The notes under the pieces were generated by a model. The model was not told where the DNA came from, made no database searches, and saw nothing but the letters and a program-made list of their open reading frames with translations. Below, piece after piece: positions 34 through 12,156 of a stretch of 14,132 nt of DNA. The translations under genes were made by a program, and so were the position numbers. Source of the stretch: a virus. Its lineage: Duplodnaviria; Heunggongvirae; Uroviricota; Caudoviricetes. How positions within the stretch are numbered: position 1 is the first letter of the stretch; each line of letters starts with the position of its first letter. The DNA is taken from IMG/VR virus record IMGVR_UViG_2534682295_000006. One strand, 5' to 3'.

Positions 34-786
34 TTAAATCGACATCGCGCTGAATGCCGCAGACGTCGACTTACGCCCTGGATAACGTTTATCCCAGTCA
101 CGCAACATGTCAGCAATCACCTGACGTTGCAGGTTAGGCTGTGAACCGCACAGGTTGCACGGAATAATCGGGAACGCTTTTGCATCGGCAAATCGCTGAA
201 TATCTTTCTCGCGGCAGTAGGCCAGCGGACGAATAACGATATGTTTGCCATCATCGCTCATCAGTTTCGGAGGCATACCTTTCATCTTGCCGCCGTAGAA
301 CATATTTAAGAACAACGTTTGCAGGATATCGTCACGATGGTGGCCCAACGCGATCTTCGTCGCCCCCAGTTCCGTTGCGGTGCGATAAAGGATACCGCGA
401 CGTAGCCGAGAACACAGTGAGCAAGTGGTTTTGCCCTCTGGAATCTTCTCTTTCACGATACCGTAAGTGTTCTCTTCAACAATCTTGTACTCAACGCCCA
501 GCTTTTCAAGATACTCGGGCAGAACGTGTTCCGGGAAGCCCGGTTGCTTTTGATCGAGGTTAACAGCCACCAGCGAAAAATTGATTGGCGCGCTTTGCTG
601 CAAATTGCGCAGAATCTCCAGCATGGTATAGCTGTCTTTACCCCCGGAGAGGCAAACCATGATGCGATCGCCTTCTTCAATCATATTGAAGTCAGCAATG
701 GCTTCGCCCACGTTACGACGCAGGCGTTTTTGTAATTTGTTCAGGTTGTATTGTTCTTTCTTTGTAATTTGTTGATTTTCTTGCAT
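34..786 (-). CDS. ttcA: tRNA 2-thiocytidine synthase TtcA, 250-aa ORF; C-terminal tail appears divergent and short relative to the roughly 311-aa K-12 protein as I recall it
   Basis: Track ORF. PP-loop motif SGGKDS and two CxxC motifs (CSLC, CNLC) present. First ~230 aa match my recollection of K-12 TtcA, after which the sequence differs and stops. Confidence 0.85.
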
Positions 787-837
787 TATTTCAGTTCTCT
801 GGTACTAAATGGGGCAAATTGGGGGCAAACTTTGCAA

Positions 838-2073
838 CTATGATAACCGCGCATTCAACATGGCTACCTGTTCGTCGTTCATGTCATCAATCCACATACC
901 GTAAATTTCATACACCATCTGCGCAGTTTCATGCCCCATTTGGCTGGCTATAAATGCCGGGTTCGCTCCTGCCGTCAACAGCCAGCAGGCAAAAGTATGC
1001 CGCGTATGGTACGGATTACGGCGGCGAATACCAGCACGTTTTACTGCTGCATTCCACCTTGCCCCCAAACTGCTTACCGAGTAATAAGGTTTTTGTTTTC
1101 CGTTACACACCCTGGGCATGAAAACAAAATGCAGTTTTTGCTTTTCGGTTCTGCCGTACTCCCGATGATAAAAGGTGATTTCGCTTTTGCGATGATGCCC
1201 GGTCAGTTTGTATTGCTCCTTCAGTGCTTCAAGAGCAGGCTGCAGTAGTGTTACCGTCCGGATCCCCGCATTTGTTTTTGGGGGACCGAACATATCCAGT
1301 ATCGTCAGGTTTCTTCTGACATTCACAACTCCCTTCTCGAAATCCACATCCTCCCACGCCAGAGCAGCCAGTTCCCCGTGACGAAGCCCGGAGTATACGG
1401 CAAATTTCCACAAGTTCTGGCTCTGTCCTTTTTCACTTTCCATTAATGCATTGAATTCTGTTTTAGATAACGGGTCAGGCTTTATTCTGTTTCTCTGTAA
1501 TTTCTTTACTCCTTCAAATGGTTTGGTTGATATAAATCCCGACTGATACGCAAAACGTAACAACGAACAGAGCAGGGCGATATAGTTATCAACTGTGCGC
1601 ACGGTTCTTCCTTTTTTGTTGGATCTTGGATTATCCAGGTAAAGCGTTTCTCCATGCAGCAGTTCATTCCGGTAGTTTAAGATATCGCTATAACGAATAT
1701 GCGATATCGGAGTACTCTCACAAATTATTATCCTGAGTGTTTTTAATTGTGATTTCGTTTTCTTCATTGTGTTTGTTGTTAACTCTGTTTCTTTAATTTT
1801 TGTCCAGATATCACAAAGCTCCCCGAACGTTTTTATGACCCTCGTTGTCACCATTTTTGCCCCAGTGCTGGACTGGGGAAAACGTCTTAAATACTCAAAC
1901 TCACCGGAATTGATTTCATGAACTATCAACGCTCTTAAATTCCCGGCTTTTTTAATGTTACTGTTAGTAACCTCCCAGCCTTTCAATGTTTCCCGACATC
2001 GTTTTCCTCGAAACATGAACCAGATGCGAATGTATTTACCTCGAATCTCGACACCTGTTGGTAATTTAGACAT
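838..2073 (-). CDS. intR: Rac prophage integrase, tyrosine recombinase, 411 aa
   Basis: Track ORF of 411 aa, matching recalled K-12 IntR length and N-terminus MSKLPTGVEIRGKYIRIWF. C-terminal HTRHT box and downstream conserved Tyr. Located next to ttcA and an excisionase gene. Confidence 0.93.
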   Translation of the reverse strand: MSKLPTGVEIRGKYIRIWFMFRGKRCRETLKGWEVTNSNIKKAGNLRALIVHEINSGEFEYLRRFPQSSTGAKMVTTRVIKTFGELCDIWTKIKETELTTNTMKKTKSQLKTLRIIICESTPISHIRYSDILNYRNELLHGETLYLDNPRSNKKGRTVRTVDNYIALLCSLLRFAYQSGFISTKPFEGVKKLQRNRIKPDPLSKTEFNALMESEKGQSQNLWKFAVYSGLRHGELAALAWEDVDFEKGVVNVRRNLTILDMFGPPKTNAGIRTVTLLQPALEALKEQYKLTGHHRKSEITFYHREYGRTEKQKLHFVFMPRVCNGKQKPYYSVSSLGARWNAAVKRAGIRRRNPYHTRHTFACWLLTAGANPAFIASQMGHETAQMVYEIYGMWIDDMNDEQVAMLNARLS

Positions 2074-2074
2074 A

Positions 2075-2290
2075 TCATGAGTCTTTGATAAACTGATTTA
2101 TCTTTGGATAGTTATACCAGATAATCCCTCGCTTACTGTCTGGCTTCCCTAAAGGAGATACTCGTTTGAAGTGGAAGCCTTCCACCCAACAGTTCTGGCG
2201 GTATGCTTCAATTTGTCTGGCCCCCAGACCAGTGCGAAGCATCAGGCCGTATTCAACCATCCACTCTTCATTAAAGATTACTTGTGCCAT
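2075..2290 (-). CDS. xisR: Rac excisionase, 71 aa from ATG at 2290; the track ORF extends 8 codons further upstream to 2314
   Basis: Translation [71 protein letters not shown] matches recalled YdaQ. Its stop at 2075-2077 lies 1 nt from the intR start codon. Confidence 0.85.
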
Positions 2291-2389
2291 CGCATCACCT
2301 CTGGCAGGCGCCAATGTTAGACTTAAATTGACGCCCGATGTTGATTATTAATAATCAGCTATGAAGTTTTAATTTGAATACAATGCAAT

Positions 2390-2590
2390 TCACGAGGACT
2401 GAAGTTTCTCGCAATTAAAATTTATCAGTTTTACTTTCTGCTCTCTGGAAACGCCTGCTTCTTTTTTACCTGAGAGCATTTTTTCGCATTCTGATTTCGT
2501 TAGTTTAGATTTTGAATATCTTGTCCAGTTAGTAGGAGTGCCACCTTCCTTTTCAATAGTGGCGGTAATTTTATACATGAACACCTCCAT
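2390..2590 (-). CDS. ydaC: Rac prophage small protein YdaC, 66 aa from MEVFMYK; alternative upstream start at 2650
   Basis: Track ORF 2390..2650. An internal ATG at 2590 gives the N-terminus MEVFMYKITATIEKEGG that I recall for YdaC. The 5' end overlaps the ralR 3' end. Confidence 0.75.
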   Translation of the reverse strand: MEVFMYKITATIEKEGGTPTNWTRYSKSKLTKSECEKMLSGKKEAGVSREQKVKLINFNCEKLQSS

Positions 2591-2765
2591 TATTATTTCC
2601 AGTGGTTCGTTTATTTCATCGTTCGAGTGCTTCTTTTTCACTTCCACCATAACCGGTTCGGGATTCGCATCCGTTACACTTCGCTCGGTAATATCCTGAA
2701 ATGGCTTTCACCGTTACTGATGGACAACCACAAAATGGACATGGTTTAACATTGTCATATCTCAT
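2571..2765 (-). pseudogene. ralR: ralR (lar) restriction-alleviation / type I toxin gene interrupted by an in-frame TGA at 2616-2618 (codon 50)
   Basis: Minus-strand translation from ATG 2765: MRYDNVKPCPFCGCPSVTVKAISGYYRAKCNGCESRTGYGGSEKEALER-stop-NKRTTGNNNGGVHV-TAA. Recalled K-12 Lar is 64 aa with Trp at the stop position. The track has no ORF of 60 aa or more here. Confidence 0.7.
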
Positions 2766-2793
2766 AATTTTTCTCATAAAAATATTTCAAGTT

Positions 2794-2812
2794 GGCGGTG
2801 CATTACACCGCC
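2794..2812 (-). terminator. GC-rich stem-loop GGCGGTG-CATTA-CACCGCC between recT and ralR; weak intrinsic-terminator candidate for leftward transcripts
   Basis: Perfect 7-bp inverted repeat with 5-nt loop read directly. On the minus strand it is followed by a moderately U-rich stretch (AACUUGAAAUAUUUUUAUG). Confidence 0.3.
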
Positions 2813-2820
2813 AGGCTGAA

Positions 2821-3630
2821 TTATTCCTCTGAATTATCGATTACACTGTATTCCCCGGTTAATACAGAGGAATCTGCAGGATCGATTGTCAGTGGTTCCT
2901 TTTCATCCATTGATACTGCACGCTGGATCTCAATTGATACGGGCAGATATTTGAACAGGCGACGAATAGCCGTTTTCTTTGCCATTTCTTCCCAGTGAGT
3001 TACCCACGGCCCGTTATTACCAGCTTTACTCTGGCTGCGCACCAGCTCAATCTGTTTGCGCGTCATAACTTCAAACTGAGTACCTCCGTCTTTCAGTCTT
3101 GCGACAGCATAGACGTGGGTAACAGGGGCATCTTCGTTTTCTCCTGGGCGGTGTATTAACTTTTCATCAAGGCCAAATTCGAAATTAAACTCGTCACCTT
3201 CACGGACAACACGGGCTGACAAGCTGGCGATTTGACCTGAACGGCGAGCCAGATCAATCATGCCTCGATAGCCAATGATTAGCTGAACGTTTTTTTTACC
3301 GCTCTTTTCGTTTTTATTACCAAAAGGCAGTAAATATGCATGACCGAGGGCGCTACCGGGCTCAAGTCCGAGCTGTGAACACTGTACGATTGCACTGACA
3401 AAACTCATAGTGTCACAGTTTCCTAACGCCGGAACTTTACGAATTTCTGTGGTGGCGATACGGATCATACGTTCAGCCGTCATATGGCGTGGAAGAGCTG
3501 CTGCCAGTTGCTCTTTCATTGATGGCTGGTTAATAAAACTAATCACGTCGTTATTTTTAATTGCTGCTGGTGCACGGTTTCCCTGAGTTTTTTGCAGATC
3601 GGCTTTTGCGATTGGTGGTTGCTTAGTCAT
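2821..3630 (-). CDS. recT: RecT single-strand annealing protein, 269 aa from ATG at 3630; the track ORF starts 19 codons upstream
   Basis: Translation from [29 protein letters not shown] matches recalled K-12 RecT. Its start overlaps the recE 3' end by 8 nt. Confidence 0.93.
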
Positions 3631-6223
3631 TTGCATATTCCTTAGCCCAGCGGGGCAGTGATAACGTCTTAATAGCTGGCCATTCATCGGTATTGAGGCA
3701 GTCAGCCAGGGTTCGCAGATTGCGGTGATATTCCAGCTGACCTGCCAGTTTTGCTTCTTCGCCCATCATGAAAATTTCAACCGGATAACGTCCGCATTCA
3801 ATAGTTGTGCTGGCAACCAGAAAAACGAAAGTTGGCTGCACTCCAAACTGTGCTTCATAACCGTCACTGTAGAATGCATCCTGAACGTGATAGCGGTAGT
3901 CGTAATAAGCGGTTTTGAATCGTTGAATATCCGCCGTAGTTTTCACGTCCATGATCCAGTGAAATTCAGGGATAATTTTGTCCGGACGGCACCGACACAA
4001 AATTGCTGTTTCAGGATCTTCCCAGTAAATTGATGATTCAGCGTGTCCGGCGCTTTCAACAAGCCATTGCCCCAGCGGCAAAGCCATAACGCTCTGATAC
4101 ATGAGTTCAATTTTCCGGCCTTCTTCGGCAGTGATAACCGTTTTTCCTGTGCTTGCGCATTCCCTCAGAAACGCTTTCTCTTCTTCTTTTCCGGAGTTTG
4201 TCCGGCGGTTAAATTCAGGTGCTACGATAAAGCGGTTACTGAATTCTTCCGGCTCAAGTACCCGGCAGTGGAAAGCGGTTCCTAAATCGAGCGTTTTTGT
4301 CTTTGTGGTGTCCACGGGGGCATTTTTACGCCACAAATACAGTGCCGGAGTATCAGCAATGTCATCGAGCTGAGACTTACTGACACCGGGACCCGCGTGG
4401 TAATTCTCATTCGAAATTCCGTAATAAATACCTGGCTCTATGTCTTCTACGATTACGGGATCTGCGACTTCGCCAGTTTCATCACTGCAATCGCGATGCG
4501 GATCGCTGCCAGCATTCTCATTGTGCGGATGTTCAGCGCCTTCCATTTCCTCCGGATCATTTTCCTTAGCTTCAACCTGACTCTCTTCATCGAATGTTTC
4601 CTGGTATGTTGCGTCGCCCATCACCGCACCACAGTCAGGGCAGTTATCCCCGCCAGTCTGGCCGCAGGCATTGCAGGCTATTTCCGGTTCCTGTTGCACT
4701 ACTGGCTCAGGTTGATTCATATCCGGGCTGGTTTTTTCCGTTTCTGGCTGGTTCTGGTACACACAATCGCGAGTCTGGATCCCCTTTACCCATTTCGGAT
4801 CGTTCGGGTCGCTAATTCCGTCAACAAATTCACCACGTGATGCAGCAAGCAATTTATCGGCATCGACAGGATTTTTTGATGGAATGTTTTTCCGGGCTTC
4901 ATGGAGTTCTGCCCGCAGTTCCTGATATTTCGCATCAACAGAATTTACCTGTGACTGAGCATCCAGCGGCTGCGTGTCCTGATGATGTTCAGTTGCGTCC
5001 GGTTCCATTGTTTCAGCCTCTCCCTGTTCAACTGCCGTTGTTCCAGATGGTTGCGGTTTTTCTTCATCATCCTGTTTTCCTTCTTCTGTTACTCGCTGCG
5101 GCATCGGGGCAGAGGAGCGACCGCAGGCAATATCCACGATTTCCGGATCAGGGTTGGCATGATCGGTTTCAGTCAGTACTTTGTTCAGATATTCAGTGAC
5201 GTGCGCGGGGATGACCTCGATCCCAATTGGTGCTTCTTTTACGGACGCAACCACGATGGCGCGGGAATAATCCAGCCCGCCAGGCATGGTGATGAATTTG
5301 TCGCGGAAAACAGAAAAGGGCGGTTTATTTTCAGCGATAATTTCCTCAATGCGTTTAGCGTGTGCCGGATGAAGGTTATAGATGTCCAGATCCATTGAAC
5401 GGGCCAGTACGCCAGTGGCTACGTCGCGCGCCAGTGACGTCAGATCGTGTACGAAACCTTCGCCGCGATCGGTGAGGTTTCCGCCGCCAGCATTAGCACC
5501 GGAAGCCGTGCGAGTGATGTGTGAAACACGATTACCCTTCATCCACTCTTTTGTCAGCAGTCCTCGATCGGTGTAGTCAGCGTTCAGGTATGCTTCGAAA
5601 AAAGCAGTTATCAGTCCCAGGTTTGAATTACCAGGATTAGGGAAAACTTTGTCAGTGTCACGAACCAGTTTGTGGAGTTCGCGAATTTCCAGCGGGTCGA
5701 GCAGGCTGGTTTTGTGGGAAACAGCCAGGGCAGTAACAGCCGGTAGTTCTTCAGCCCGAGCAATGTGTAATGCCTGGAGTCCGTCGCGTGAAACGTGCGT
5801 TACCGGTTTTTCGCTGCCGTGTTGAGCAAGCCAACGAATGGGCAGTTCCTGGCCAGAAATTGGGAGTAGCATATTCTCCTCAATCTCAGTCATGTCTTCG
5901 CCGTTGACGTTGGTATTGCCTTGATAGTGAGCGTTGTCTGGTGCTGCTCCCGGTTTTAGTTCCCATGTCATGGAGTCTTTGCTGAGTTGATAGCGTTCAC
6001 TCCAGGTAAAATCGATCTCACCTTCAGCGGGCAGGTCATTAACGACAGGAAAATTCGTGGCAACAGCTTTAAAATAGCTGCTCAGTTTTTTACCTGACTT
6101 AACGATCAGGTAGTCCAGAGTGGCACAGGTCGATTCAAAATCGTTGCTTGCCCACAGGACGACGTCAGGTTCACCGGATGATTTTTTCGCTTTCCGTAAC
6201 AGGAAGAGTGGTTTTGTGCTCAT
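3623..6223 (-). CDS. recE: RecE exonuclease VIII, 866 aa
   Basis: Track ORF of 866 aa; N-terminus [32 protein letters not shown] and length match recalled K-12 RecE. Immediately upstream of recT. Confidence 0.93.
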
Positions 6224-6296
6224 TGTTTTTTAACCTCAACTCAGATTAAAATTCGTTTTGTTCAGTGAATGATCTTGCCGGATACACACTGTTCAT

Positions 6297-6317
6297 AGCC
6301 TGCGCCATACGCAGGCT
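6297..6317. other. Perfect 8-bp stem-loop AGCCTGCG-CCATA-CGCAGGCT between the racC stop and recE start
   Basis: Inverted repeat read directly. On the plus strand it is followed by a T-rich run (ATTTCTTTCAGATTT); on the minus strand it lies 8 nt after the racC stop with no U-run. Confidence 0.35.
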
Positions 6318-6324
6318 ATTTCTT

Positions 6325-6600
6325 TCAGATTTCACCTTTTAATTTCATTGCAATTAGAGTTGCCAGAAATTCGGCTTTTTTTTCTGTGGGCAGATTCTTT
6401 CCGATATGCACCAGGCACATTTTTTTGACACCTTCATCAAGTGTTTTTACGTTGCCTGATGGACCATCGATATCAACCACAGTGAATGGGGTTTCTTTAT
6501 TTTCTGTTTTAATTACGTAGCCAATGCGCTTTCCTTCCAGATTCACCTCGTGAACAATGTCATCGGTAGTTACAACAGTGGCTTCATAATTGGTAATCAT
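6325..6600 (-). CDS. racC: Rac prophage protein RacC, 91 aa from ATG at 6600
   Basis: Translation MITNYEATVVTTDDIVHEVNLEGKRIGYVIKTENKETPF matches recalled RacC. Shine-Dalgarno AAGGAG lies 6 nt upstream of the ATG. Confidence 0.85.
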   Translation of the reverse strand: MITNYEATVVTTDDIVHEVNLEGKRIGYVIKTENKETPFTVVDIDGPSGNVKTLDEGVKKMCLVHIGKNLPTEKKAEFLATLIAMKLKGEI

Positions 6601-6674
6601 GTTTTTCTCCTTAATTAAGGTTGAGCGAATACCTGCCATTTCTGGCATAAATTCAGTTTCGAATAGTCAATTAA

Positions 6675-6845
6675 TTAAAGTTCATGTGCCATCTGGTCTT
6701 TTTCGGCACAAGCTTCACTGCAATATTTTCTCGGTTCGTCTTTTGATAAAATCCCGTGCATGAAGTGAAGCATTCTTTCAATAGCTTTGCTTTCTTCAAC
6801 GTCTTTTTTGCAAAGGTGGTAAGCACATTTTATTTTCTTAGTCAT
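6675..6845 (-). CDS. ydaE: Rac prophage small Cys-rich protein YdaE, 56 aa
   Basis: Manual minus-strand translation: [56 protein letters not shown]. Not in the ORF track because it is under 60 aa. Its start overlaps the kilR stop (TGATG). Confidence 0.82.
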   Translation of the reverse strand: MTKKIKCAYHLCKKDVEESKAIERMLHFMHGILSKDEPRKYCSEACAEKDQMAHEL

Positions 6846-7066
6846 CACCATGACTCCGCCTTTACAGGTAAACCATCACGACCGAGGAAGACTTTAATCA
6901 TGCGGTCAGTAATGCATGTTTTTGTGGTCAGGTTACGAATATATAGTTTTCGCTTTTTAATATTGTTTGCCGAGGCAATATATGTCCGGCCTTCATGAAG
7001 AACATAATCGCCAGGAGTCACACACTGACGTGGTATTTCATCAGTTCCGAAGTGATGTGCAATCAT
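6845..7066 (-). CDS. kilR: KilR cell-division inhibitor, 73 aa from ATG at 7066
   Basis: Translation [73 protein letters not shown] matches recalled KilR. GGAG Shine-Dalgarno upstream. Confidence 0.88.
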
Positions 7067-7246
7067 AATTATCTCCATTTTTACAAATGAACTTTGTTGA
7101 TGCGGTGCCTGGTGCCTCCAGGTGACTGCAACCAGTTAACAATTACAGTCGGCTTTCCCACCCAAACCAATAAGGACTAACATGACTTTTAACTGTGCCA
7201 CGTGCGCTTAGCCGCATTCACCGCATCACAAAATTCACTTTAAAAA

Positions 7247-7289
7247 GGGCGGACATCAGCCGAACTTCAAGAAAAAAACTGATGCCGCC
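7247..7289 (-). terminator. Candidate intrinsic terminator for leftward transcription in the kilR-sieB spacer
   Basis: Plus-strand arms GGCGGACATCAG (7248-7259) and CTGATGCCGCC (7279-7289) pair with one bulge around a 19-nt loop. On the minus strand the stem is followed by CUUUUUAAAGUGAAUUUU. Confidence 0.3.
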
Positions 7290-7507
7290 AGGACTACACA
7301 CAGCAATGTCGTTATTTACAACCGGAGGCGCACTCCCACCATTTAAATTTAACAGACAAGACCGACTCTTTATGGATATCGGAAATGCGCCTTCGTGTTG
7401 TGCCCGGTTTTATTTCACCACCTCCGGGCTTCGGTGGTCTCGGCTATACCCCTACAGCGAGAGCTTGTGTTAACATTTCAATACCCTTACAGTTGAGAGT
7501 TATTGAT

Positions 7508-7996
7508 ATGTTGGATGTATTTACTCCATTGTTGAAACTTTTTGCTAACGAGCCACTCGAAAGACTTATGTATACGATTATCATTTTTGGTCTCACTCTC
7601 TGGCTGATACCGAAAGAGTTTACTGTCGCATTCAATGCTTATACTGAAATACCTTGGCTCTTTCAGATTATCGTTTTTGCCTTTTCTTTCGTGGTCGCCA
7701 TTTCCTTCTCAAGATTGCGAGCACATATTCAAAAGCATTATTCATTACTACCAGAGCAACGAGTATTGCTTCGTTTATCTGAGAAAGAAATCGCTGTATT
7801 TAAAGATTTCCTTAAAACAGGAAATCTTATTATCACTTCTCCTTGCCGTAACCCGGTTATGAAAAAATTAGAACGGAAGGGCATCATTCAACATCAGAGT
7901 GATAGCGCAAACTGTTCTTATTATCTCGTCACCGAAAAATACTCCCATTTTATGAAGTTATTCTGGAACAGCAGGAGTAGACGTTTTAATCGTTAG
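7508..7996 (+). CDS. sieB: Superinfection exclusion protein SieB, 162 aa from ATG at 7508; the track ORF extends upstream to 7385
   Basis: Translation MLDVFTPLLKLFANEPLERLMYTIIIFGLTLWLIPKEF matches recalled SieB. Hydrophobic N-terminal segments. Opposite orientation to the surrounding operon. Confidence 0.88.
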   Translation: MLDVFTPLLKLFANEPLERLMYTIIIFGLTLWLIPKEFTVAFNAYTEIPWLFQIIVFAFSFVVAISFSRLRAHIQKHYSLLPEQRVLLRLSEKEIAVFKDFLKTGNLIITSPCRNPVMKKLERKGIIQHQSDSANCSYYLVTEKYSHFMKLFWNSRSRRFNR

Positions 7997-8148
7997 CTTA
8001 CTGTGTGCTTCTCCAACCATCGGCGCGCACCAGTTTCGGTTTTAAATGTTTTGCTTTTGGTATACGTCATGGCAGTGAACGTTCCATCCTGGTTGGGGAA
8101 CACGCCGCACACCAGGGATTCGTTGTTGCCGAGGTCGATTTTTTGCAT
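7993..8148 (-). CDS. ydaF: Rac prophage small protein YdaF, 51 aa
   Basis: Manual minus-strand translation: MQKIDLGNNESLVCGVFPNQDGTFTAMTYTKSKTFKTETGARRWLEKHTVS. Under 60 aa so absent from the track. Convergent with sieB, stop codons overlapping. Confidence 0.78.
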   Translation of the reverse strand: MQKIDLGNNESLVCGVFPNQDGTFTAMTYTKSKTFKTETGARRWLEKHTVS

Positions 8149-8158
8149 TTTGCGAATC

Positions 8159-8293
8159 TCACATCTTGTTGCTACGTATAGCGACTTCTGCCTGCCAGAG
8201 ATCCCAGTCGTTGCTGCGTAAAGCCTGCACAGCCTGGTTGTAAGTGATACCGCAACAATCCATCAAATACTGAACTACTTCGTAATGCACCAT
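8159..8293 (-). CDS. ydaG: Rac prophage small protein YdaG, 44 aa
   Basis: Manual minus-strand translation: MVHYEVVQYLMDCCGITYNQAVQALRSNDWDLWQAEVAIRSNKM, matching recalled YdaG. First gene downstream of the putative leftward promoter. Confidence 0.78.
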   Translation of the reverse strand: MVHYEVVQYLMDCCGITYNQAVQALRSNDWDLWQAEVAIRSNKM

Positions 8294-8454
8294 CTTATCT
8301 ATCCCCTTAACGCCGGGTGGCGGAACTAACTGCTGCACTGCAAAATTTGAATCCCGCCGTCATGTTCATACGCCTCGGGCTGGCTACTTAACCCCTGACC
8401 ACTGCCTGGTAACTCGAAGTATTGCCCGGCGTTCTGTGGGGCGGGGTGGGTTGG

Positions 8455-8520
8455 TAGGTATATAATGTACTTTGTGTTCATCATTGTAAAGTACTTTAAG
8501 TACATTTTATGTATAAAAAA
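8455..8520 (-). promoter_or_regulatory. Putative leftward early promoter/operator region upstream of ydaG
   Basis: AT-rich tract with palindrome AAGTACTT (8489-8496) and an inverted pair ATGTACT (8465-8471) / AGTACAT (8499-8505). Minus-strand TTTACA (8490-8485) with AT-rich -10 candidates 17-19 nt downstream. Confidence 0.4.
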
Positions 8521-8580
8521 ATGAGACGGGATAAAGTGAAGCACAAACCCGGAGGGGGACGCTACCGGATTTATGCTGGT

Positions 8581-9000
8581 TTAAGAGGCTTTTTGTTTTT
8601 TCTTTCGTGCTAACTCTTCGTAAATTGCATTGTACTTCTGTTTTTTCTCCTCAAGAGTTTTTAAAAGTTCATCTGTCTCACTGTCAGGGAGCTCGTCCAG
8701 AAGGTCAATGATGATTTTTTGTCTTGGATTTAACTCCTGATAGAAACGTATCTGTCCACTTTCTTCTGTATCCTCTCCCAAAAGATAGGTTGGTGTTGTT
8801 CCAATGAGTGTTGCTAATTCCCTTAATTTCTCTCGGCGAGGAATTGTTTCACCATTAAACCATTTGCTAACCGCTTTTGGTGTTAATTTCATTCGACGGG
8901 CAATTTCTGCCTGCCTTCCATGTTGTTCATAACCAGCGTTTTCACAGGCTAGCGCAAGCCTACTGGCGAACTCTTTACGCGCTTTATCTTCATGAACCAT
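8581..9000 (-). CDS. racR: Rac prophage repressor RacR, XRE-family HTH regulator, 139-aa ORF
   Basis: Track ORF. HTH-like segment GRQAEIARRMKLTPKAVSKWFNGETIPRREKLRELATLIG. Divergent from ydaS-ydaT. Confidence 0.88.
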   Translation of the reverse strand: MVHEDKARKEFASRLALACENAGYEQHGRQAEIARRMKLTPKAVSKWFNGETIPRREKLRELATLIGTTPTYLLGEDTEESGQIRFYQELNPRQKIIIDLLDELPDSETDELLKTLEEKKQKYNAIYEELARKKKQKAS

Positions 9001-9079
9001 AAGTTCAATGATATTCGCTCTTGAATGTACTGTCAGTTCTGTTATAGCATGTACTCAAAGTTCACATTGTGAGGGTGAT
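9001..9079. promoter_or_regulatory. Divergent racR / ydaS promoter-operator region
   Basis: Two direct copies of ATGTACT (9025-9031, 9049-9055) flank a plus-strand promoter candidate: -35 TTGAAT 9021-9026, -10 TATAGC 9043-9048. GAGGGTGAT Shine-Dalgarno precedes the ydaS ATG at 9080. Confidence 0.5.
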
Positions 9080-9334
9080 ATGAACCAGAAAACACTTGAA
9101 GATGTAATCAAAACTGTTCGCGTTTCTGTTGTGGCCGACGTTTGTGGTGTCAGCCAAAGAGCAATCTACAAATGGATGGATAACGGTAAATTGCCTCGCA
9201 CAGAATATACCGGCGAAACAAATTACGCTGAAAAAATCGCTCATGCATCAAACGGATTATTTTCTGCCGATGCAATTTTAACTATTGGCAGAAATAAAAC
9301 TACTACGAAAAAGCTGATGGGAGTTGATTCATGA
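9080..9334 (+). CDS. ydaS: YdaS, Cro-like HTH protein, 84 aa from ATG at 9080; the track ORF starts at 9008
   Basis: Strong Shine-Dalgarno GAGGG before ATG 9080. Using 9008 would leave only 7 bp between the divergent genes. Stop overlaps the ydaT start (ATGA). Confidence 0.82.
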   Translation: MNQKTLEDVIKTVRVSVVADVCGVSQRAIYKWMDNGKLPRTEYTGETNYAEKIAHASNGLFSADAILTIGRNKTTTKKLMGVDS

Positions 9335-9753
9335 AAATCAAGCATGAGCACATCGAATCAGTGTTGTTAGCCCTGGCAGCCGAAAAAGGGCAGGCGTGGG
9401 TCGCTAACGCAATTACTGAAGAATATCTGCGCCAGGGGGGCGGCGAATTGCCCCTGGTACCAGGCAAGGACTGGAACAATCAGCAGAATATCTATCATCG
9501 TTGGTTGAAAGGTGAAACGAATGCGCAAAGGGAAAAAATTCAGAAACTGATCCCTGCGGTTCTGGCAATTCTTCCTCGCGAGCTGCGTCACCGACTCTGC
9601 ATCTTCGATACCCTGGAACGCCGTGCATTACTGGCGGCACAGGATGCACTGAGTACGGCAATTGATGCGCATGATGATGCAGTCCAGGCCGTTTACCGTA
9701 AAGCACATTTCAGCGGCGGCGGTTCTCCTAGCGATTCTGTCGTAGTGCATTGA
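9331..9753 (+). CDS. ydaT: YdaT, Rac prophage toxic protein, 140 aa
   Basis: Track ORF of 140 aa starting MKIKHEHIESVLLALAAEKGQ, matching recalled YdaT length. Translationally coupled to ydaS. Confidence 0.88.
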   Translation: MKIKHEHIESVLLALAAEKGQAWVANAITEEYLRQGGGELPLVPGKDWNNQQNIYHRWLKGETNAQREKIQKLIPAVLAILPRELRHRLCIFDTLERRALLAAQDALSTAIDAHDDAVQAVYRKAHFSGGGSPSDSVVVH

Positions 9754-9766
9754 TTGAAATTAATCG

Positions 9767-9788
9767 TACCGAACTGTTTTGTTCGGTA
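9767..9788 (+). other. Stem-loop TACCGAAC-TGTTTT-GTTCGGTA after the ydaT stop
   Basis: Perfect 8-bp inverted repeat with 6-nt loop read directly. Sits 14 nt after the ydaT stop and just upstream of the first GTAACGC dyad. Confidence 0.3.
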
Positions 9789-9798
9789 TCAGTTAAAT

Positions 9799-9817
9799 GT
9801 AACGCTGCGAGCGTTAC
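9799..9817. repeat. Dyad repeat 1, GTAACGCT-GCG-AGCGTTAC, just upstream of the ydaU start
   Basis: 19-bp element with perfect 8-bp arms read directly. Same core as the two copies inside ydaU. Confidence 0.6.
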
Positions 9818-9830
9818 AAGGTGAAAACAA

Positions 9831-10619
9831 ATGGCTTCAAACTGGATAAAGCTCGAAGTTATTACGCCGGATAAGCCGGAAATATTCAGGCTTGCTGAGA
9901 TTCTGAATATTGATCCAGATGCCGCATTAGGGAAAGTCATTCGCTTCTGGGCATGGGCGGATCAACAAATGATAGACGGTAACGCAGAGTGTAACGCTCG
10001 CGGCGTTACAAAAAGTGCAATAGATCGCATCACTTTTATGGCTGGTTTTGCTGATGCGTTAATTCAGGTTGGATGGCTGGTCGAAACTAATGGTGTGTTG
10101 TCGCTTCCTAACTTTGAGCGCCATAACGGGAAAAGCTCTAAAAAACGGGCGGTTACAAACGAGAGAGTAACAAAAATACGAGAACTGAAACGAAAAGGTA
10201 ACGCTGCCAGCGTTACAAAAACGGATCAAAAAGCGTTACCAGAGGAAGAGAAAGAGGAAGATATAAATACTTATCTCCCCCTAAATCCCCCTCGCCAAAA
10301 ACGAGCGTCTAAAAAATTCGAACCGGAGGCTATCGAGCTGCCTGACTGGTTGCCGGAAACACTCTGGCATGAGTGGGTTCAGTTCAGGCAGGCATTGCGA
10401 AAACCGATTCGAACGGAGCAGGGCGCTAACGGGGCGATACGGGAGCTGGAAAAATTCCGCCAGCAGGGTTTTTCACCTGAGCAGGTGATTCGACACAGCA
10501 TCGCCAATGAATACCAGGGCTTGTTCGCGCCGAAAGGTGTTCGGCCAGAGACGTTGCTCCGACAGATTAACACCGTCTCGTTTCCGGACAGTGCGATCCC
10601 GCCAGGCTTCAGGGGGTAA
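9831..10619 (+). CDS. ydaU: YdaU, putative lambda O-like replication initiator, 262 aa
   Basis: Track ORF; an in-frame stop sits 2 codons upstream of the ATG. Directly upstream of the DnaC-like ydaV. Contains dyad repeats and an AT-rich linker. Confidence 0.85.
   Translation: MASNWIKLEVITPDKPEIFRLAEILNIDPDAALGKVIRFWAWADQQMIDGNAECNARGVTKSAIDRITFMAGFADALIQVGWLVETNGVLSLPNFERHNGKSSKKRAVTNERVTKIRELKRKGNAASVTKTDQKALPEEEKEEDINTYLPLNPPRQKRASKKFEPEAIELPDWLPETLWHEWVQFRQALRKPIRTEQGANGAIRELEKFRQQGFSPEQVIRHSIANEYQGLFAPKGVRPETLLRQINTVSFPDSAIPPGFRG
9991..10009. repeat. Dyad repeat 2, GTAACGC-TCGCG-GCGTTAC, inside ydaU, with an extra half-site GGTAACGC at 9978-9985
   Basis: Read directly. Encodes the NARGVTK peptide segment. 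Confidence 0.6.
10198..10216. repeat. Dyad repeat 3, GTAACGCTG-C-CAGCGTTAC, inside ydaU
   Basis: Perfect 9-bp arms read directly. Further half-sites at 10151-10157 (GGTTAC), 10167-10172 (GTAACA) and 10233-10239 (GCGTTAC). Confidence 0.6.
10241..10290. other. 20-nt all-purine tract, then an AT-rich segment and two C5 runs; candidate DNA-unwinding element of the origin
   Basis: AGAGGAAGAGAAAGAGGAAG (10241-10260), ATATAAATACTTATCT (10261-10276), CCCCCTAAATCCCCCT. Lies immediately after the dyad cluster, as in lambda ori. Confidence 0.45.
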
Positions 10620-10625
10620 CAGACC

Positions 10626-11372
10626 ATGAAAAATATTGCGACAGGCGGCGTTCTGGAACGTATCCGCAGACTGGCCCCGCCACATGTAACCGCGCCATTC
10701 AGGACGGTGGCGGAGTGGCGCGAGTGGCAACTTGCAGAAGGCCAGAAACGTTGTGAGGAGATCAACCGTCAGAATCGTCAGTTGCGGGTGGAAAAAATCC
10801 TGAATCGCTCCGGCATACAGCCGTTGCACCGCAAATGCTCGTTTGCGAATTACCAGGTGCAGAACGACGGCCAGCGATACGCGTTGAGTCAGGCGAAATC
10901 TATCGCTGACGAACTGGTTACCGGATGCACAAATTTCGCGTTCAGCGGAAAACCTGGTACCGGAAAAAACCATCTGGCGGCGGCTATCGGGAATCGCCTG
11001 CTGAAAGATGGCCAGACAGTGATTGTGGTTACCGTGGCTGATGTTATGAGCGCCCTGCACGCCAGCTATGACGACGGGCAGTCAGGCGAAAAATTTTTGC
11101 GGGAACTGTGCGAAGTTGATCTGCTGGTTCTTGATGAAATTGGTATTCAGCGCGAGACGAAAAACGAGCAGGTGGTACTGCACCAGATTGTTGATCGCCG
11201 GACAGCGTCAATGCGCAGCGTGGGGATGCTGACAAACCTGAACTATGAGGCCATGAAAACATTGCTCGGCGAGCGGATTATGGATCGCATGACCATGAAC
11301 GGCGGGCGCTGGGTGAATTTTAACTGGGAGAGCTGGCGCCCGAATGTTGGTCAGCCAGGTATTGAGAAGTAA
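10626..11372 (+). CDS. ydaV: YdaV, DnaC/IstB-like AAA+ helicase loader, 248 aa
   Basis: Track ORF. Walker [11 protein letters not shown] and Walker B LLVLDEIG. Length matches recalled YdaV. Confidence 0.9.
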
Positions 11373-11394
11373 TTTTTACCGGGAGGAAATTTTA

Positions 11395-12156
11395 ATGGAG
11401 ACCGTTTTTGACGCACTGAAAGCGATGGGAAAAGCCACGTCGGTAGAACTGGCTACGCGACTTGATATCAGTCGAGAAGAAGTGCTGAACGAGCTGTGGG
11501 AACTGAAAAAGGCTGGCTTCGTTGATAAAAGCGTATACACCTGGCGCGTGGCTGATAACAACGTTCAGCAGGAACAGCCAGCGCCGGCAGAGCTGCCGGA
11601 AGAAACCACCATGGCAACAGTAGCGAAAATCTCAGAGTGCGATTTAACCGCGACGATTGAACAACGTGGCCCACAAACGGCGGATGAGTTGGCTACATTG
11701 TTCGGTACCACATCACGCAAAGTAGCTTCAACGCTGGCAATGGCTATCAGCAAAGGACGCCTGATTCGCGTAAACCAGAACGGTAAATTTCGTTACTGCA
11801 TACCGGGCGATAATTTACCAGCAGAGCCGAAAGCAGCATCGGTAGCGGAAACTGATGGTAAGGCCTTTCCTCAGCCCACAGGTGTTGCGTTACCAGTACA
11901 GGAGGCTGCAACACAGGAAGATATTAAAACAGAAACGGTGGCGGACATTGTGCAGTCGCTGCCATCGTTTACTGAAACGCGAGCGGATGACCTGGTTTTA
12001 CCATCGCTGCATATGGCAAACCGCGAACTGCGTCGGGCGAAAAATCATGTCCAGAAGTGGGAGCGAGTCTGCGCCGCGCTGCGGGAGCTGAACAAGCACC
12101 GGGATATTGTTCGACAGATTTTCGATTCCTCCAGTCGTATTGTGTCGGAAAAGTGA
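11395..12156 (+). CDS. ydaW: YdaW-like protein with two tandem winged-helix-like segments, apparently full length at 253 aa
   Basis: Shine-Dalgarno GGGAGG 11381-11386 precedes ATG 11395. The track ORF starts at 11344, inside ydaV. K-12 ydaW is a truncated pseudogene as I recall. Confidence 0.75.

Follow-up and report, generated by a model that had tools for sequence, protein, structure and literature searches.

Regulatory spacers between divergent repressor genes of prophages raise the question of which protein acts on the repeats that they contain. In the Rac-type prophage studied here, two copies of the heptamer ATGTACT lie on the + strand between two divergent genes for HTH proteins (9025–9031 and 9049–9055, 24 bp start to start). 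The first copy overlaps the hexamer TTGAAT (9021–9026) by 2 nt, and the second stands directly 3′ of the hexamer TATAGC (9043–9048). The original prediction took the two genes for racR and ydaS, the hexamers for the ydaS promoter and the heptamers for operator half-sites of RacR. A motif search bore out the positions of both copies relative to the −35 and −10 hexamers. The window, meaning the entire 14,132-bp stretch analyzed, matches chromosomes of O111 strains and of further STEC strains at 100% identity, and corresponds to a Rac-type prophage adjoining ttcA. Its genes run in the order intR, xisR, ralR, recT, recE, racC-like, ydaE, kilR, sieB, ydaF, ydaG-like, HTH repressor, HTH gene, ydaT and replication genes, which matches the gene order of K-12 Rac.

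To evaluate the repeat itself, ATGTACT was counted on both strands of the window. Four copies were found against 1.0 expected, and at least four were reached in 5 of 200 shuffles. The two further copies are located at 8465–8471 (+) and 8499–8505 (−), just past the 3′ end of the repressor gene. The enrichment of the bare heptamer that the original prediction called for checking was thus modest; yet all four copies fall in two regulatory spacers. Extending the motif gave a much stronger signal. ATGTACT-N3-AGTTC matches perfectly at 9025–9039 and 9049–9063, so the repeat exceeds seven bases, and allowing up to 2 mismatches it has 7 matches in the window (0.83 expected), a number reached in 0 of 200 shuffles. 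The dyad TGWAC-N5-GTWCA with at most 1 mismatch occurs 6 times against 1.5 expected. Apart from 1 stray match, these occurrences form two clusters, one at 8466–8480 and 8490–8504 and the other at 8993–9007, 9026–9040 and 9050–9064. The unit is therefore not a 7-bp direct repeat, as had been proposed, but a 15-bp pseudo-palindrome, TG(T/A)AC-N5-GT(T/A)CA, of which each heptamer is the left half.

This dyad was scored with a symmetrised matrix built solely from the five operator sites annotated in the HK022 record X16093, where they carry the label "pot. repressor binding site". That record gives the oR sites as TGAACCATAAGTTCA, TGTACTATCAGTTCC and TGAACCATAAGTTCA with a pR of TTGACT and CATAAT, and the oL sites as TGTACTTAAAGTTCA and AGTACCAATAGTACA with a pL of TTTACA and CATCAT. 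At a threshold of at least 12 bits, the matrix returned exactly five matches in the window (13.2–20.0 bits), all of them at the two regulatory spacers. The next best match reached 9.8 bits, and Markov-random sequences gave a mean of 0.40 matches with a maximum of 3. Across 14 kb of K-12 Rac, no match of at least 11 bits was obtained. Applied to HK022 itself, the matrix also recovered OL3 (53 bp from OL2) and a far-right operator about 300 bp past OR, and we consider it validated because both are reported in PMC8053113, citing Carlson & Little. The same scan returned neither an OL3 nor a far-right operator in the window. When the OR and OL DNA was compared directly with HK022, the alignment ran without internal gaps at 74–78% column identity and included the annotated pR and pL hexamers.

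Three of the predicted operators lie at the divergent spacer. The OR1-equivalent TGTACTCAAAGTTCA (9050–9064, 17.1 bits) holds the core of the second heptamer, begins one base past the −10 and spans the expected PR transcription start; its position matches that of an HK022 oR site, TGAACCATAAGTTCA. The OR2-equivalent TGTACTGTCAGTTCT (9026–9040, 14.6 bits), 24 bp from OR1, holds the core of the first heptamer, has one base in common with the PR −35 and occupies the promoter spacer. HK022 has its OR2, TGTACTATCAGTTCC, at the equivalent position. The OR3-equivalent TGAACCATAAGTTCA (8993–9007, 20.0 bits) is centered on the initial A of the repressor start codon (ATG, minus strand, 9000–8998), and it is identical to HK022 OR3, which likewise spans the cI ATG.

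The promoter-like hexamers around these sites also have counterparts in HK022. The candidate PR −35 TTGAAT (9021–9026, + strand) matches the HK022 pR −35 TTGACT by position, and its CTTG is kept in all relatives. The candidate PR −10 TATAGC (9043–9048, + strand), placed after a 16-bp spacer, matches CATAAT by position. The hexamers chosen in the original prediction therefore remain the candidates, although the gene downstream of them is not ydaS. TATAGC is without the final T that is usually essential and that most relatives have (CATAAT), and a promoter scan of the window did not call this candidate. A TG at 9040–9041 provides an extended −10. An alternative −10, TAGCAT (9045–9050), follows an 18-bp spacer. 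PR may be weak or may use TAGCAT, and the TG at 9040–9041 may compensate. On the opposite strand, the promoter scan identified a candidate PRM-like promoter, CTGACA-17 bp-TATCAT (9008–9036, minus strand, 10/12 matches), with its −35 (9036–9031) within OR2. The HK022 record X16093 has CTGATA-17-TATAGT at the equivalent place. The PRM −10 ends 7 nt upstream of the repressor ATG, and therefore a leaderless repressor mRNA is predicted, for which lambda cI and CP-933P paaR2 are precedents (PMC8630535). Positive autoregulation should not be assumed, because the PRM −35 sits inside an OR2 at −33, a geometry unlike that of lambda.

The remaining two predicted operators lie past the 3′ end of the repressor gene. 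The OL1-equivalent TGTACTTTGTGTTCA (8466–8480, 13.2 bits) overlaps the PL −10 and aligns with the HK022 oL site TGTACTTAAAGTTCA. The OL2-equivalent AGTACTTTAAGTACA (8490–8504, 17.2 bits), 24 bp from OL1, aligns with AGTACCAATAGTACA, is a perfect 13-bp dyad and has one base in common with the PL −35. The PL-like promoter TTTACA-17 bp-CATTAT (8462–8490, minus strand) was found by promoter scan with 9/12 matches, and HK022 pL, TTTACA-17-CATCAT, is at the equivalent place. It is directed at the ydaG-like ORF, ydaF, kilR, racC, recE and recT. A scan for an intrinsic terminator between the repressor gene and OL found none. An ORF overlapping OL (8326–8544, minus strand, 72 aa) has no Pfam match, is absent from the RefSeq annotation and was treated as spurious. 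Both of the sites first noticed are thus real, while the set to which they belong comprises five, including one over the repressor start codon and a PL-like pair about 560 bp away.

If these sites are functional, they should be retained in related phages. Relatives were taken as loci encoding the repressor DNA-binding-domain family, obtained from contig searches by encoded protein and from the phage collection. The loci examined were from E. coli phage vB_EcoS-673R7, Shigella, two Salmonella prophages (repressors 62–65% identical to that of the window), Klebsiella phage 2b, Salmonella phage S9-5, a Raoultella prophage and two metagenome contigs. The repressor search of genome contigs contributed only one locus, a near-identical one from Shigella. 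In every locus examined, the HK022 matrix placed the OR sites with centers at 0 (OR3), −33 (OR2) and −57 (OR1) from the repressor ATG, and the OL pair was 24 bp apart wherever the fetched DNA reaches OL. This layout is independent of the repressor tail, whether S24 or short, and of the cargo between the repressor gene and OL, such as a HigB-like pair or an AAA ATPase. Comparison between genera shows little or no change in the TG(T/A)AC and GTTC halves or in the −35 CTTG, while the central operator bases vary. In the close relative L010, whose repressor is 89% identical, all 9 substitutions in the 79-bp OR spacer lie outside its 37 operator bases (P = 0.002), and OR1 is unchanged. In the OL spacer of L010, 2 of 20 substitutions are in operator bases, both in the center of OL1, giving a combined hypergeometric P of 5e-4 for OR and OL. 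Position 9049 is substituted in L010 while the OR 15-mers are not, which puts the leading A of the heptamer outside the conserved unit.

These results bear on two simpler readings of the repeats. Chance repetition in an AT-rich spacer, with no function, would suit the modest count of the bare heptamer. It does not suit the strong enrichment of the extended motif and of the HK022 matrix matches, which is restricted to two spacers, or the maintenance of site positions across genera with substitutions that avoid the sites; the probability that we give this reading is practically negligible. The heptamers could instead be true direct-repeat sites, bound by a monomer or head to tail as in iteron- or Xis-type arrangements, rather than halves of a dyad. 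OR1 and OR2, which are 24 bp apart, do have the better half (TGTACT) on the same side, and the CP-933P study raised the use of both direct and inverted repeats in a related switch (PMC8630535). Against this, every heptamer is paired with an inverted partner at a constant N3/N5 distance, one copy lies on the opposite strand, and OL2 has the perfect dyad noted above. The left half of OR2 reads TGAACT in the Salmonella and Klebsiella relatives, so the exact direct repetition of ATGTACT is lineage-specific, and what the relatives keep is the dyad. A repressor of the same type, that of 933W, binds its 15-bp symmetric site as a dimer (PMC3317979). Direct-repeat recognition is therefore highly improbable, and the inverted 15-mer is retained as the operator unit.

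The identity of the protein that would bind these operators depends on the two flanking genes. The leftward gene (8581–9000, minus strand) encodes an immunity repressor of 139 aa. An N-terminal XRE-type HTH like that of HK022 and 933W CI (Pfam HTH_3, E = 1.8e-9) is followed by a short helical C-terminal part. By tblastn against phage genomes, it is 46.5% identical to HK022 CI over residues 4–102 and 50.7% identical to the 933W/phi24B-type CI over residues 1–73, and the isolated phage vB_EcoS-673R7 encodes an identical repressor. Its recognition helix, TPKAVSKWF, differs from that of HK022 CI, TPKAISKWF, by one conservative change, and K42 and K46, the recognition-helix residues that set specificity in the 933W repressor (PMC3317979), are conserved. 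The alignment stops short of the S24 region of HK022 and phi24B CI, and Pfam detected no Peptidase_S24 in the protein, which sets it apart from the S24 self-cleaving CI proteins of lambda, HK022 and 933W. RecA-stimulated self-cleavage is not expected, because the repressor is without this domain. An AF2 model placed the HTH domain at residues 2–74, a disordered linker at 77–86 and helices at 83–88, 92–103 and 106–138, with helices only beyond residue 83. A fold search of this model against the PDB gave generic XRE-HTH matches alone, none with E ≤ 0.001, and the sole match in a PDB sequence search was the P22 C2 N-terminal domain (E = 0.006). The last 67 aa of the repressor are also found C-terminally in about 37 clusters of further short proteins, of which several have HTH domains. 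A MAFFT alignment hinted at a RacR-like C-terminal domain; BLASTP of these 67 aa against RacR found nothing, and the idea was dropped.

The rightward gene (9080–9334, + strand, 84 aa) occupies the position that ydaS has in K-12. Over 73 aa, its product shares 62% identity with HK022 Cro (E = 1e-34); identity to the phi24B/933W-type Cro is 47%, and there is no meaningful similarity to K-12 YdaS. The naming of this pair as racR and ydaS, our initial assumption, was ruled out by protein and DNA comparisons with K-12. The repressor shares only 12 of 33 residues with RacR, confined to the HTH, and is not its orthologue, nor is the Cro-like protein an orthologue of YdaS. RacR of K-12 binds its own intergenic region at three repeats, of which one covers the racR ATG (PMC5700373, PMC9638921), with the operator motif (T/A)TAGGC-N3-GCCTA(T/A) (PMC9638921). 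In K-12 Rac this motif has 5 matches, solely the three copies in the racR–ydaS spacer and two beyond racR; with up to 2 mismatches allowed, it has 0 matches in the window. That the heptamers are half-sites for a K-12-type RacR repressing ydaS–ydaT was a natural assumption, since the gene order is that of K-12 Rac, with a divergent repressor/HTH gene pair followed by ydaT, and RacR binding to its own spacer follows a parallel logic. With the proteins and the motif both different, this assumption has become exceedingly improbable. Published RacR binding data do not transfer to this locus, because its genes are not racR and ydaS orthologues.

DNA comparison with K-12 Rac delimited the region that differs. 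By blastn, the window is 98.9% identical to K-12 Rac over 72–8456, has no match over 8457–9324 and is 92.5% identical over 9325–9751. An 868-bp cassette (8457–9324) has therefore been exchanged between matching flanks. Its left limit coincides with PL/OL and its right limit with the end of cro, and the junction with K-12-like DNA at 8456/8457 is close to the predicted PL transcript start. A segment with a leftward promoter, a repressor, a divergent spacer and a cro-like gene is the classical definition of an immunity region. Among 5426 complete E. coli genomes, this cassette occurs in 1047 and the K-12 racR–ydaS cassette in 1085 (about 19–20% each). Our literature search found no paper on an HK022-type Rac cassette, and no HK022-type heteroimmune variant appears in Jobling's letter on Rac-like prophages (PMC5917428).

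Taken together, the two ATGTACT copies are very probably the promoter-distal halves of OR2 and OR1, within a five-operator HK022-type lambdoid switch that replaces the racR–ydaS module in a Rac-type prophage. The suggestion that they are operator half-sites is thus very probably correct, with the divergently encoded repressor as the predicted binder. Alternatively, the Cro-like protein or the cII-like YdaT might be the main user of the sites. In lambdoid phages, Cro and the repressor have their operators in common, and K-12 YdaT, to which the YdaT of the window is 94% identical, binds operators in the racR–ydaS spacer as well as a YdaT-box (PMC11879457). However, the motif accompanies the repressor DNA-binding-domain family in different genera, and is kept in loci such as L007/L008 and L014, where no ydaT-type gene was called in the DNA fetched. 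The YdaT-box TTGATT-N6-AATCAA, perfectly matched at 9324–9341, is also unrelated in sequence to the sites. Predominant use by either protein is accordingly very unlikely, while shared use of the sites by Cro is compatible with, and part of, the explanation by an HK022-type switch.

In this switch, dimers of the 139-aa repressor would bind each 15-mer through the HTH and its recognition helix. Occupancy of OR1 and OR2 would cover the edge of the PR −35, the spacer and the start site, and blocking PR would keep the cro-like gene, ydaT and the replication genes off. At the other end of the cassette, occupancy of OL1 and OL2 would cover the PL −35, spacer and −10, and the ydaG-like ORF, ydaF, kilR, racC, recE and recT would be silent. 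OR3, centered on the repressor ATG and on the predicted leaderless start, would let the repressor shut down its own gene when its level is high. The same sites are probably used by the Cro-like protein as well.

The five predicted sites provide a precise operator map of a switch that presumably silences recET, kilR and the replication genes. Our findings also point to two or more heteroimmune forms of Rac-type prophage, the two described here being of similar frequency. K-12 results on RacR, including its essentiality, its operators and its cross-talk with C-proteins, are therefore not transferable by gene position to the STEC/O111-type element. Strains reported to have ydaT without racR (PMC5700373) are explained by the alternative heteroimmune cassette that Rac-type prophages carry. 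More tentatively, and with less than even likelihood in our judgment, the repressor may recognize HK022-type operators in trans. About one in five E. coli genomes would then be immune to HK022-immunity phages, and an HK022-like CI or Cro from an incoming or co-resident phage could cross-regulate recET, kilR and ydaT. In that case, the helical C-terminal module would serve in oligomerization or induction, for example as the target of an anti-repressor, and would uncouple the switch from RecA-mediated cleavage. The original prediction was right in kind, having recognized operator half-sites at the promoter of the rightward gene; it erred on the proteins, on the size and symmetry of the sites and on the extent of the set.

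Comparison with known systems places this switch among the lambdoid immunity regions. K-12 Rac is built on the same prophage backbone at the same attachment site, with ydaT and the YdaT-box downstream. It also shares the 2 + 3 layout of dyad operators, one of them over the repressor ATG, and a short repressor without S24. In contrast, the K-12 operator sequence, the repressor and the protein in the cro position are all unrelated to those of the window. The two cassettes are predicted to be heteroimmune alleles of one locus. The PaaR2/YdaS/YdaT system of CP-933P (PMC8630535, PMC9986795) is likewise part of a cryptic lambdoid prophage, with a non-S24 repressor encoded by a leaderless gene, operators in OR and OL that lie over PR, PRM and PL, and a cII analogue of the YdaT type with the box TTGATT-N6-AATCAA. 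Unlike the window, CP-933P has four sites in its OR region and a toxin–antitoxin pair downstream of the repressor. Its operator consensus, GTTTAGTAA, also differs, with 0 matches in the window at up to 1 mismatch.

The 933W/phi24B switch, as annotated in EF517298, is closer. It has an OR3 over the cI ATG and two OL sites, and the site of the repressor dimer is 15 bp long and symmetric about the central base pair, with the half-site n-G-(A/T)-A-C-(T/C) (PMC3317979), which the sites described here match. The 933W operators, however, favor GTAC(G) ends; the HK022 matrix scored them lower, giving 12.2–12.3 bits for two of the three annotated OR sites and less than the 11-bit listing threshold for the third. 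The 933W recognition helix has S41 where the window repressor has P41, and 933W CI has an S24 domain. The 933W repressor is reported to be non-cooperative at adjacent sites (PMC3317979). HK022 CI is reported to bind neighboring operators cooperatively within OR and OL and to form a loop between OL and OR (PMC8053113, citing Carlson & Little 1993). The repressor described here may lack such cooperativity and looping, since its C-terminal part bears no relation to the S24 domain of HK022 CI.

HK022 itself is the nearest counterpart. It shares with the window the operator consensus, the OR3 TGAACCATAAGTTCA over the repressor ATG, the spacings of 33 and 24 bp in OR and 24 bp in OL, and the placement of the operators relative to the pR and pL hexamers. 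The differences are that HK022 CI has an S24 (LexA-like) domain where the window repressor ends in a short helical part, that the downstream regulator of HK022 is a lambda-type cII and not YdaT-type, that the −10 of PR is weaker in the window (TATAGC against CATAAT), and that the surrounding phage is Rac-type, with recET, kilR and sieB. At the sequence level, the dyad, the three-site OR and OL layout, the promoter overlap and the homologous repressor and Cro of the HK022/933W type were all found. The proposed mechanism is textbook lambdoid repression, making the HK022-type Rac cassette a further example of a well-understood type of element.

The HK022-type cassette of the window was also found in an isolated phage, vB_EcoS-673R7 (ON470616, 37.8 kb), which carries a Rac-like early region with recE, racC, kilR, sieB and ydaT. 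Within positions 2937-3535 of this phage, the repressor is identical to that of the window and the same five operators are present. Therefore, not every element with this cassette is cryptic. Comparison of the promoter hexamers between the window and its relatives suggested a possibly weaker PR in the Rac-type copies. The candidate PR -10 in the window, at 9043-9048, reads TATAGC, and the corresponding position in the relative with the 89% identical repressor reads TGTATG/TATGTT. HK022 and the Salmonella, Klebsiella and Raoultella relatives possess CATAAT-like hexamers.

The 139-aa repressor lacks an S24 peptidase domain. Its C-terminal part (residues 73-139, 8581-8784, minus strand) is modeled as helical, with a long helix predicted at residues 106-138. 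This part matched no solved structure or Pfam family. Short proteins in about 37 clusters, defined at the 50% identity level, end in the same C-terminal part, and several of these clusters have HTH_3 N-terminal domains. A likeness to the C-terminus of RacR was considered and was not supported.

At the right-hand end of the cassette, a YdaT-box, TTGATTCATGAAAATCAA, spans the ydaT ATG at 9324-9341 and perfectly matches the CP-933P consensus TTGATT-N6-AATCAA, whereas the K-12 box begins with ATGATT. On this side, the swapped cassette stops exactly at the box, and K-12 homology restarts at 9325. K-12 has a YdaT-dependent reverse promoter within ydaS, the gene that is replaced in the window element. 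A second mosaic patch without similarity to K-12 Rac lies at 9752-10245, comprising the intergenic DNA 3' of ydaT together with the N-terminal coding portion of the ORF at the ydaU position (9831-10619). From 10246 to 11844, the window is 91.8% identical to K-12 Rac.

Relatives carry cargo genes in the interval that separates the repressor gene from OL, where lambda has rexAB. This cargo is a HigB-toxin/HTH pair in two Salmonella prophages (L007, 3053-3720; L008, 3088-3755) and a 480-aa AAA-type ATPase in a Raoultella prophage (L014, 3308-4750). The window has no gene in this interval. A 72-aa ORF with a GTG start (8326-8544, minus strand) overlaps OL and PL, and it is probably not a gene because it has no Pfam match and is unannotated in RefSeq. 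The first annotated leftward gene is a 59-aa ydaG-like ORF (8159-8338, phrog_14709). In K-12 MG1655 Rac (L002), the RacR operator motif occurs twice at 9630-9669, as ATAGGTAATGCCTAA and ATAGGCTATGCCTAA with a spacing of 25 bp, on the 3' side of racR and the 5' side of ydaG. This OL-like pair mirrors the OL pair of the window.

On the minus strand, a -10-like TATCAT (9008-9013) ends 7 nt 5' of the repressor ATG (8998-9000), and no Shine-Dalgarno sequence precedes this start codon. Based on these two sequence features, the repressor mRNA is predicted to be leaderless, like the mRNAs of lambda cI and CP-933P paaR2.
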